From the IMG/VR virus record IMGVR_UViG_2690316286_000019, positions 1 to 11,459 of that record: 11,459 nt of DNA; one strand, 5' to 3'. Below, one piece after another: positions 4,375-5,472 of this stretch. The notes beneath the pieces are model-generated. The model did no database searches. It had not been told where the DNA came from and saw only the letters and a list, made by a program, of their open reading frames with translations. Position 1 is the first letter of the stretch. Each line of letters opens with the position of its first letter. Origin of the DNA: a virus (Duplodnaviria > Heunggongvirae > Uroviricota > Caudoviricetes). A program made the position numbers and the translations under genes.

Positions 4375-5472
4375 TTACACCGGAATATTCTCATCGTATC
4401 CTGCTTGTTGCGTTTCGTTTTGTGTTTGTGGATCCGGGAATGCATATTCAACGCCTTCCAGTTCAATCCATAGTGCATTACGACCAGCTTTGATTGTCGG
4501 CCAGTCCATACCTTTGATTCTTTCCCATGAGCGGGAGGTGAATGTTTTTTCCAGCAAATCAGCTTTTGCGCGTTTGGCGTCGTTACTGGTGCCCCCATGG
4601 TGCTTGTTGAACAACTCGATAATTTCATCAAGTGCGATTTCTTTTGCACGCTTTTCTTTTAGCCATGTCGGTGTACCGTCGTTGGCAAATAATTCACTGT
4701 TATCCCGTGAGGTATCGATGCCGAGGTGTTCACCTCCCAGGTTAAGAAACTCGATATGAGGAAGAAAGTTTTTAAATGTTGGGTTTGAAAATACCTGTCC
4801 ATCAATACGGGTGGAGCGATCTTTTAGTATTCTGGCGGTGCGCCACACCTGACCGGTTTCTATGTTCATTTGCTTCTCCATCTGGATCAGGATGGAGGGT
4901 TCATAACCGGTTTCTGTTTCTGCTTTCATTTTTATACCGGTTTTTGCCAACTGGCGTTTGCCATCATCACCTTCGAAAAAGTCATACTCATATCCTGCAC
5001 GCCCGCACATAATAATGTGCGCCTGACTGTTAACAAATCGATCGGTAAAGCGTCGCCACTCCTGTTTGAGCCACGCCCAGTCTGAAAATTCCAGTCCTCG
5101 TTTACGGTTTCGGCGTCTGGCATACTCGTCGCATAATCCGGTCCAGAAGTGACTGATGGAGTCGATGATCATTACGGAACCGCTGCTTTCCGCTTCATTA
5201 ATGGCTTCAAGCAGATCAACAAACGAGCGGGTTTTTGCCGTAAATAATTCGATATTTTCCGCATCAAAGCGGGGTTTAACCCAGTCAGAGCCTGTTTCTG
5301 TGTCCAGAAACATTACCGGGCGGTTACCAGCTTCAATTCCCCGTTGCCGCATAAGCATTACCAGACCAATAGCCAGTTCGCTTGCTGTGTAGGTTTTGCC
5401 GTCGCCAGCAAACCCCATAATTCCTGCTTTTAGATAGGCCTGTGTGTTTATTGCTCGTTGAAAAAGCGCCAT
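4375..5472 (-). CDS. RecA-like/AAA-type ATPase, Sak4-like (AAA_24-like); candidate phage recombination or accessory ATPase
   Basis: 365-aa ORF. Walker A GFAGDGKT near the N-terminus; Walker B-like hydrophobic stretch ending in aspartate (SVMIIDSISHFW). GGAGG Shine-Dalgarno about 10 nt upstream of the ATG. Family assignment is by motif pattern only. Confidence 0.7.
   Translation of the reverse strand: MALFQRAINTQAYLKAGIMGFAGDGKTYTASELAIGLVMLMRQRGIEAGNRPVMFLDTETGSDWVKPRFDAENIELFTAKTRSFVDLLEAINEAESSGSVMIIDSISHFWTGLCDEYARRRNRKRGLEFSDWAWLKQEWRRFTDRFVNSQAHIIMCGRAGYEYDFFEGDDGKRQLAKTGIKMKAETETGYEPSILIQMEKQMNIETGQVWRTARILKDRSTRIDGQVFSNPTFKNFLPHIEFLNLGGEHLGIDTSRDNSELFANDGTPTWLKEKRAKEIALDEIIELFNKHHGGTSNDAKRAKADLLEKTFTSRSWERIKGMDWPTIKAGRNALWIELEGVEYAFPDPQTQNETQQAGYDENIPV

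Follow-up and report, generated by a model that had tools for sequence, protein, structure and literature searches.

What does the RecA-like ATPase encoded beside gam in a Caudoviricetes sequence do, and what is the part of the protein that lies beyond its ATPase core? The gene occupies positions 4375..5472 on the minus strand of the window, by which we mean the whole 11,459-nucleotide (nt) stretch of DNA analysed (IMG/VR virus record IMGVR_UViG_2690316286_000019). An original prediction had assigned its product to the Sak4/AAA_24 ATPases and left about 150 C-terminal residues unexplained. We find that the 365-residue protein is an experimentally uncharacterised architectural variant of a known phage recombinase class, a long-form Sak4-like (AAA_24) ATPase with a RecA/Rad51 fold. 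It is probably a homologous-recombination protein of a lambdoid (Rac-like) prophage, of the Sak4 kind that binds and anneals single-stranded DNA (ssDNA). To our knowledge, studies and definitions of Sak4-type proteins have covered only minimal RecA relatives that consist of the core and need a cognate ssDNA-binding protein (SSB).

A conserved gene directly after gam

The open reading frame (ORF) has exactly the span originally drawn, 365 codons plus a stop, and is read on the minus strand; translation of the plus strand over the same interval meets many stops. The complete coding sequence, which is supported by the ORF list, Pfam and PHROG, starts with ATG, 5 nt after the gam stop codon, and direct reading of the sequence places a Shine–Dalgarno element (GGAGGA, 5482..5487, minus) 9 nt 5′ of this ATG, inside the end of gam. 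The encoded protein shares 99% identity with a 285-sequence Shigella/E. coli cluster named 'AAA family ATPase' and has 2047 homologues, many of them full-length at 60–87% identity, in Enterobacteriaceae (Atlantibacter, Salmonella, Cronobacter), Pseudomonas, Achromobacter, Roseateles and Aquabacterium. Compared with the orthologue of Cronobacter phage phiES15, the core has a nonsynonymous divergence (dN) of 0.063 and the C-terminal helical part one of 0.151; synonymous divergence (dS) is saturated, and dN/dS, computable for the C-terminal helical part, is ~0.05 there. The AAA_24 match, the 2047 homologues and the purifying selection relative to the phiES15 orthologue put the ORF far beyond chance, and it is a real gene under strong purifying selection. 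Its current labels are 'unknown function' (PHROG 1366) and, at NCBI, 'AAA family ATPase' only, and no NCBIfam model matches it.

The gene occupies the slot of bet and exo

The neighbours of the gene all lie on the same strand and make up the early-left arm of a lambdoid (Rac-like) prophage, in the order recE′-gam-ATPase-DUF1187-xis-int. Directly upstream in the same operon is gam, encoding the RecBCD inhibitor (5478..5777, minus; Pfam Gam, E = 8e-56), and the downstream neighbour is a DUF1187 gene (4136..4348, minus; Pfam DUF1187, E = 2e-36). At ttcA, ten E. coli genomes carry a Rac-type prophage that shares a 4.1-kb stretch with the window at 98–99% identity. Another E. coli prophage (L003), integrated at this site and collinear elsewhere, has instead gam-bet-exo-ralR-DUF1187. 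Homology between this prophage and the window, as detected by blastn, stops at 4347 and resumes at 5476, so that the swapped cassette is the ATPase gene and nothing else: positions 4348..5475 (minus) are the sole stretch of the region without homology to the bet-exo-ralR version, and the breakpoints coincide with gene boundaries. It is this exchange, in a post-gam slot that holds bet-exo-ralR in sister prophages, with breakpoints at gene boundaries, that leads us to read the product as a phage recombination protein.

The arrangement recurs in phiES15 (kil-gam-ATPase-...-xis-int) and in a Salmonella prophage (cI-kilR-gam-ATPase-...-int), where the gene takes the position that bet and exo have in lambda. 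The ATPase therefore resembles lambda Red (Gam-Bet-Exo) in its operon slot directly after a Gam orthologue, and differs from it in having a RecA-like rather than a Rad52-like fold and in being one gene as against an annealase plus an exonuclease. Like Sak4, it takes the place of a Rad52-type annealase within a phage recombination module, and Bet, lambda Exo or ExoVIII was found within 4 kb of it in none of 42 non-redundant loci. Relatives from Achromobacter and several from metagenomes have an SSB gene that overlaps the ATPase stop codon, which is also how sak4-ssb of phage HK620 is arranged.

The gene directly 3′ of the ATPase varies, and there is no universal partner: it encodes DUF1187 in the window, DUF7740 in phiES15 (L001 7098-7406), a SutA-RBD/HTH protein in Pseudomonas (L004 2649-3017) and SSB or HNH proteins elsewhere.

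Lambdoid early-left operons are rich in moron and counter-defence genes, and the ATPase could be an accessory protein (anti-restriction, counter-defence or superinfection exclusion) that merely shares an exchange hot spot with bet-exo. Consistent with such a role, the sister cassette includes ralR, a toxin or anti-restriction gene, one distant match is annotated 'DarB-like antirestriction protein', and the seed search recognised no adjoining recombination-module gene (Gam, SSB or nuclease) at ~29 of the 42 non-redundant loci. We nevertheless judge an accessory role improbable, given that the catalytic and loop motifs of RecA/Rad51 do not vary within the family, that the gene is tightly coupled to gam or ssb where these are present, and that it co-occurs with another annealase at none of the 42 loci. 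A search with PADLOC, whose models cover host defence and not anti-defence, also gave no match, and membership of a defence system was rejected on this result.

A RecA/Rad51-like core of the AAA_24 family

The RecA-type ATPase core spans residues 1–242 (4747..5472, minus) and so extends past the first ~100–190 residues. Its one Pfam match is AAA_24 (PF13479) over residues 14–187, at 52.5 bits against a cut-off of 27 (E = 7.5e-14) and thus above the gathering threshold; Sak4 of HK620, a biochemically proven ATP-dependent annealase of 25.6 kDa (PMC5928155), scores 30 bits on the same model, below the ATPase. A census of single-strand annealing proteins takes AAA_24 as the Sak4 family (PMC8093625). 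The best PHROG is 1366 (E = 1.3e-79), and PHROG 124, 'Sak4-like ssDNA annealing protein', is a secondary match (E = 9.4e-9), so neither of the Sak4-labelled PHROGs (124 or 2872) comes first. Together with the recombinase relatives and the position in a recombination module, the AAA_24 and PHROG 124 matches bear out the originally proposed Sak4/AAA_24 class.

Three long AAA_24 proteins share this core at 27–30% identity: the 'recombinase' of E. coli phage 6947 (345 residues), Mx8 p81 (340 residues) and gp33 of the Pseudomonas phage Persinger (325 residues). The phage 6947 protein, the one of the three that was scanned, also belongs to PHROG 1366. Its gene (L008 2447-3484) lies near an SSB gene, that of Persinger gp33 (L011 3501-4478) between exoVIII and SSB genes, and the neighbours of Mx8 p81 are all annotated as hypothetical.

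Searches of PDB sequences with the single protein or with a full-length profile found no match; only a core profile broadened with these three distant relatives reached the ATPase domain of Pyrococcus furiosus RadA (E = 2.2e-4). That alignment pairs GFAGDGKT with GEFGSGKT, VMFLDTE with VMWIDTE and IIDSISHF with IVDSLTSHF. In an AlphaFold2 model with a mean predicted local distance difference test (pLDDT) score of 82, the RecA-type sheet runs to about residue 229 and is followed by a helix to residue 242. The closest solved folds are recombinases (RAD51D, RecA, XRCC3, DMC1 and Sak4 of phage 52A), and among the closest known systems are archaeal RadA, the eukaryotic Rad51 paralogues RAD51D, XRCC3 and XRCC2, and bacterial RecA.

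The RecA/Rad51-like core has Walker A, Walker B and catalytic-glutamate motifs. Walker A (GFAGDGKT, residues 20–27; 5392..5415, minus) and the Walker B-like MIIDSISHF (residues 101–109) are where the original prediction had put them. G20, G23, G25, K26 and T27 of Walker A, which pairs with GEFGSGKT of RadA, are invariant in two alignments (A1 and A3). The putative catalytic glutamate lies in an invariant D57-T58-E59 motif (FLDTE; 5296..5304, minus) that pairs with 'WIDTE' of RadA, and T58 and E59 are retained in the phage 6947, Mx8 p81 and Persinger gp33 proteins. The Walker B strand, VMIIDS (residues 100–105; 5158..5175, minus), pairs with RadA 'LLIVDSLTSHF' and leads into a conserved H108-F-W110; D104, S105, H108 and W110 are invariant.

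Two conserved loops are candidates for L1- and L2-type DNA-binding loops, judging by analogy with RecA-type proteins. The L1-like loop, GRAGYEYD (residues 157–164; 4981..5004, minus), has invariant G157, R158, A159, G160, E162, Y163 and D164, and pLDDT is below 50 at residues 160–163. The L2-like loop, GIKMKAETETGYEP (residues 179–192; 4897..4938, minus), is disordered in the model, with pLDDT below 50 at residues 179–189, and G179, K181, M182, E185, E187, T188, E191 and P192 are invariant. Further on, an invariant K217-D218-R219 (4816..4824, minus) in a C-terminal β-hairpin (strand 209–218) provides candidate trans-acting residues of the arginine-finger type. In Sak4 of phage 52A, Lys229, Arg231 and His232 of the neighbouring protomer reach the ATP site (PMC11846896), and K217 and R219 may be their equivalents.

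As we propose, the ATPase would be produced from the early-left operon directly after the RecBCD-disabling Gam. By analogy with the HK620 and 52A proteins, it would bind ATP at a site formed by Walker A, Walker B and E59 and completed by K217 and R219 of a neighbouring protomer. It would then assemble on ssDNA, possibly as a filament, through the flexible loops at residues 157–164 and 179–192, and pair complementary strands. Such an activity could support the repair of phage genomes, recombination-dependent replication and mosaic exchange, tasks that fall to Bet and Exo in sister prophages.

An ATPase of this fold might alternatively act in replication, as a DnaB/gp4-like helicase, a helicase loader or an initiator ATPase. 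We regard this as very unlikely. Elements that carry the gene have separate replication genes of their own in the opposite arm (phiES15 has O/P, and E. coli CFSAN029787 and locus L014 encode a DnaB-type replicative helicase), and the gene sits in the early-left slot after gam, where it is swapped with bet-exo and not with replication genes. The protein has no Pfam match to a DnaB N-terminal domain, a primase domain or DnaB_C, and so lacks the marks of a DnaB-type helicase; its top sequence and fold matches are recombinases. Searches also returned no full-length match to a characterised family and none to a terminase or helicase loader, the outcomes that would have spoken against the original assignment. 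Persinger gp33 is labelled 'DNA helicase', a label that is probably wrong because its gene sits between exoVIII and SSB genes. The helicase and accessory-ATPase readings have less support than the recombinase reading.

A C-terminal domain exclusive to the family

The residues beyond the core form a real, conserved extension that is matched by no library. It is shorter than the ~150 residues first proposed: because the RecA-type sheet runs to about residue 229 and is followed by the helix to residue 242, the extra part comprises residues 243–365, or ~123 residues. We count it as an extension because canonical Sak4 proteins are core-only, with 219–245 residues as against 365 here.

The extension opens with a linker (residues 243–268; 4669..4746, minus) that starts with an invariant LNLGG (L243, N244, L245 and G247 invariant). 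The linker is mostly non-regular, with pLDDT of 74–84 in the full-length model and 55–77 when the region is modelled in isolation. It leads to a family-specific helical domain (residues 269–348; 4429..4668, minus) with helices at residues 269–292, 297–311, 316–320 and 324–339, all four of which have pLDDT of 83–92 in full-length and isolated models alike. Invariant positions in the domain are W270, K300, R314, W316, R318, R331, W335, Y343 and P348, and the conservation of the extension reaches as far as P348.

The original prediction had suggested checking whether this region occurs elsewhere as a separate gene. A profile of residues 243–365, searched against 1.84 billion representative proteins, matched 512 proteins at E ≤ 1e-3 and 158 at E ≤ 1e-10, and revealed neither a stand-alone gene nor attachment to other families. 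Among the best 150 matches, 76 have a complete core ahead of the domain and 43 are N-terminally truncated fragments that start inside the core. The remaining 31 showed no core and are mostly short fragments starting within or just before the domain, along with a few that keep diverged core remnants, one apparent chimera with a Mur-ligase-like N-terminus and one repetitive, spurious match. Five longer homologues (500–569 residues) have AAA_24 alone by Pfam. Reuse of the domain on its own was accordingly rejected.

Two further candidates for kinship of the domain were tried and rejected. A C-terminal domain resembling that of Red-beta has been reported on some Sak4, RecT and Erf proteins (PMC8093625), and for this clade hhalign gave a probability of 0.2%. 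The phage 6947, Mx8 p81 and Persinger gp33 proteins each have ~100 extra C-terminal residues, and these show no detectable homology to the helical domain of the ATPase.

Some homologues are longer still. Those of 440–581 residues (for example, P0121, P0140, L084, L086 and L093) continue for a further 100–200 residues past the helical domain, largely in low-complexity sequence or sequence without a Pfam match. One 517-residue homologue (P0139), which ends in DADIPF, has an insertion of ~160 residues right after the Walker A lysine (GSGK|ALRNDE...VTHN|TFSAAE) that looks like an intein. Inteins occur in the P-loop of some RecA and DnaB genes.

An acidic tail that resembles the SSB tip

The protein ends in a disordered acidic tail (residues 349–365; 4378..4428, minus) that closes with YDENIPV and has a pLDDT of ~41. 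The tail evolves fast (dN/dS 0.57), yet its character is kept, with a family mean net charge of −3.7 over ~19 residues. In counts drawn from related sequences, which are hence not independent events, D-[IVLFM]-P occurs in 58 of 260 family tails as against 13.8 ± 3.2 in shuffles, a terminal [DEN]-[IVLFM]-P-x(0-2) in 30 of 247 (3.2 ± 1.8 expected) and a terminal -AA in 64 of 247 (7.5 ± 2.7 expected). Tips of the [DEN]-[IVLFM]-P-x(0-2) kind include DENIPV in the window, FDEDIPQ in phiES15, FDEEIPL in Salmonella, and DADIPF and DDDIPY in others. The -AA class, to which the window protein does not belong, has ends reminiscent of ssrA-type C-terminal degrons.

DENIPV resembles DDDIPF, the C-terminal tip of SSB, a likeness in sequence that we treat as a lead and not as a result. 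The equivalent tip of HK620 SSB is needed to stimulate Sak4 (PMC5928155).

Bacterial RecA is ordered as a core, a small C-terminal domain and an acidic autoregulatory tail. The same order in the ATPase suggests roles for its two C-terminal parts: most likely, and by analogy alone, the helical domain would bind a partner or act as a secondary DNA-binding module, and the tail would be an autoregulatory peptide or one that interacts in the manner of an SSB tip. Any function of the domain is conjecture because it has no detectable relative.

A bolder and unlikely proposal is that the long form is a self-sufficient, 'full-size' phage recombinase that unites a Sak4 core, a helical module of its own and an SSB-tip-like tail ([FY]-D-E-x-I-P-x). 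The tail might then gate the protein's own binding site for DNA and the SSB tail; alternatively, it might recruit host readers of the SSB C-terminus, such as RecJ, ExoI, RecQ and PriA. If so, a single gene would do the work of Bet and Exo together and need no phage SSB. Family members with -AA ends might, in this view, instead be tuned by ClpXP-type degradation.

Weighing the recombinase reading

The closest known systems also include Sak4 of HK620 (HkaL, 226 residues) and of Staphylococcus aureus phage 52A (PDB 8rc5). Relative to these two, the ATPase adds the linker, the four-helix domain and the acidic tail, its best PHROG is 1366 and not 2872 or 124, and the window lacks a phage ssb. Nor does it qualify as RecA or UvsX (PF00154), for which a RecA hidden Markov model match and a RecA-type α/β C-terminal domain would be expected.

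Several observations weigh against a recombination role of the Sak4 kind. All members of the clade are uncharacterised by biochemistry and genetics. Direct homology to HK620 Sak4 was rejected as not significant (BLASTP E = 0.11; hhalign probability 0.5%), and the two proteins are connected solely by the fold and by the broad AAA_24 and PHROG 124 profiles. Lopes et al. (2010) accepted as Sak4 only proteins of <290 residues, a core-only size that the ATPase, at 365 residues with a 123-residue C-terminal module, exceeds. Searches of Pfam, PDB and BFVD detect no relative of the C-terminal domain. Neither the ORF list nor Pfam reveals an ssb gene in the window, so the adjacent cognate SSB typical of Sak4 is missing here, and the window and phiES15 both lack a nuclease partner, which means that the cassette does not stand in for Bet and Exo one by one. 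As to the tail, the last residue of the window protein is Val and not Phe; the terminal Phe of the SSB tip matters for partner binding.

Finally, the host prophage is decayed, and the gene may be silent in the present genome for this reason. The gene could even be carried silently by a dead prophage and owe its open frame to recent acquisition rather than to function in the host, which we consider an appreciable possibility, somewhat short of even. The surroundings favour it (recE without its nuclease domain, a 198-nt duplication in rha, an IS1 insertion and ambiguous bases in several ORFs), as do shortened versions of the gene in some Shigella and E. coli (clusters of 296, 260 and 261 residues, and disrupted copies at loci L057, L065 and L072). 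Against it, the frame is intact here and nearly identical to that of the 285-sequence cluster. Silence in this genome is compatible with the identity of the protein as a phage recombinase.

Phage annealases drive recombineering and phage mosaic evolution, and are targeted by defence systems such as AbiK and SaPI Stl2. The long form is widespread, with >500 clusters at 50% identity, including those from Shigella, E. coli, Salmonella, Cronobacter and Pseudomonas prophages. Its clean exchange with Bet-Exo, often with no adjoining phage SSB or nuclease, points to another way of solving the same problem and makes it a candidate single-gene recombineering tool. Surveys that limit Sak4 to 290 residues or trust PHROG labels count no recombinase in such prophages. 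For the window itself, the result is an annotation refinement of a decayed prophage and no surprise.

Prophage surroundings

Upstream of gam, an ORF of 646 residues (5752..7692, minus) encodes the N-terminal region of RecE only, without the C-terminal nuclease domain, and its end overlaps the gam start. It matches positions 1–596 of 877 of the NCBIfam exoVIII profile, below the cut-off, and positions 1–622 of 883 of PHROG 607. Its counterpart in E. coli CFSAN029787 is annotated as a pseudogene missing the C-terminus, and the bet-exo version of the prophage also has a short 'RecE family' gene, of 657 residues. It thus seems that the N-terminal part of RecE, which is dispensable, survives as a gene of its own upstream of lambda-type gam cassettes.

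On the other side of the ATPase, two excisionase-like genes lie in tandem (Pfam Exc and DUF1233; 3546-3842 and 3839-4060, minus) between DUF1187 and a 358-residue integrase of the lambda Arm type (2504-3580, minus). The E. coli ttcA prophages, which have the remainder of the module in common with the window, encode a different integrase, IntR; homology to them starts at ~3845-3852. The element is flanked by an ipaH-type E3-ligase gene and a chromosomal DUF2511 gene, which identifies a Shigella-type genome as the source. The former, beside the integrase (521-1765, minus), has LRR_TTSS, LRR and NEL E3-ligase domains; its NEL match spans only profile positions 2–121 of 223 and the ORF has an ambiguous residue, and the gene may be truncated.

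Beyond recE lie YdaE-like and Rha genes and then IS1. The Rha-family gene contains a 198-nt tandem direct duplication at 95% identity (8606-8803 and 8805-9002), with an ambiguous base at the junction, which splits it into overlapping ORFs at 8386-9069 and 8795-9427; the duplication could be real or an assembly artefact. The IS1 copy (insA 9936-10211, insB 10130-10633) is bracketed by a 145-nt direct repeat at 99% identity (9492-9636 and 10661-10805), far longer than the 9-bp target duplication expected of IS1. Ambiguous bases also appear as X residues in several translations (for example, 446-877, 521-1765, 3839-4060 and 8386-9427), and the window looks like a draft or consensus assembly.

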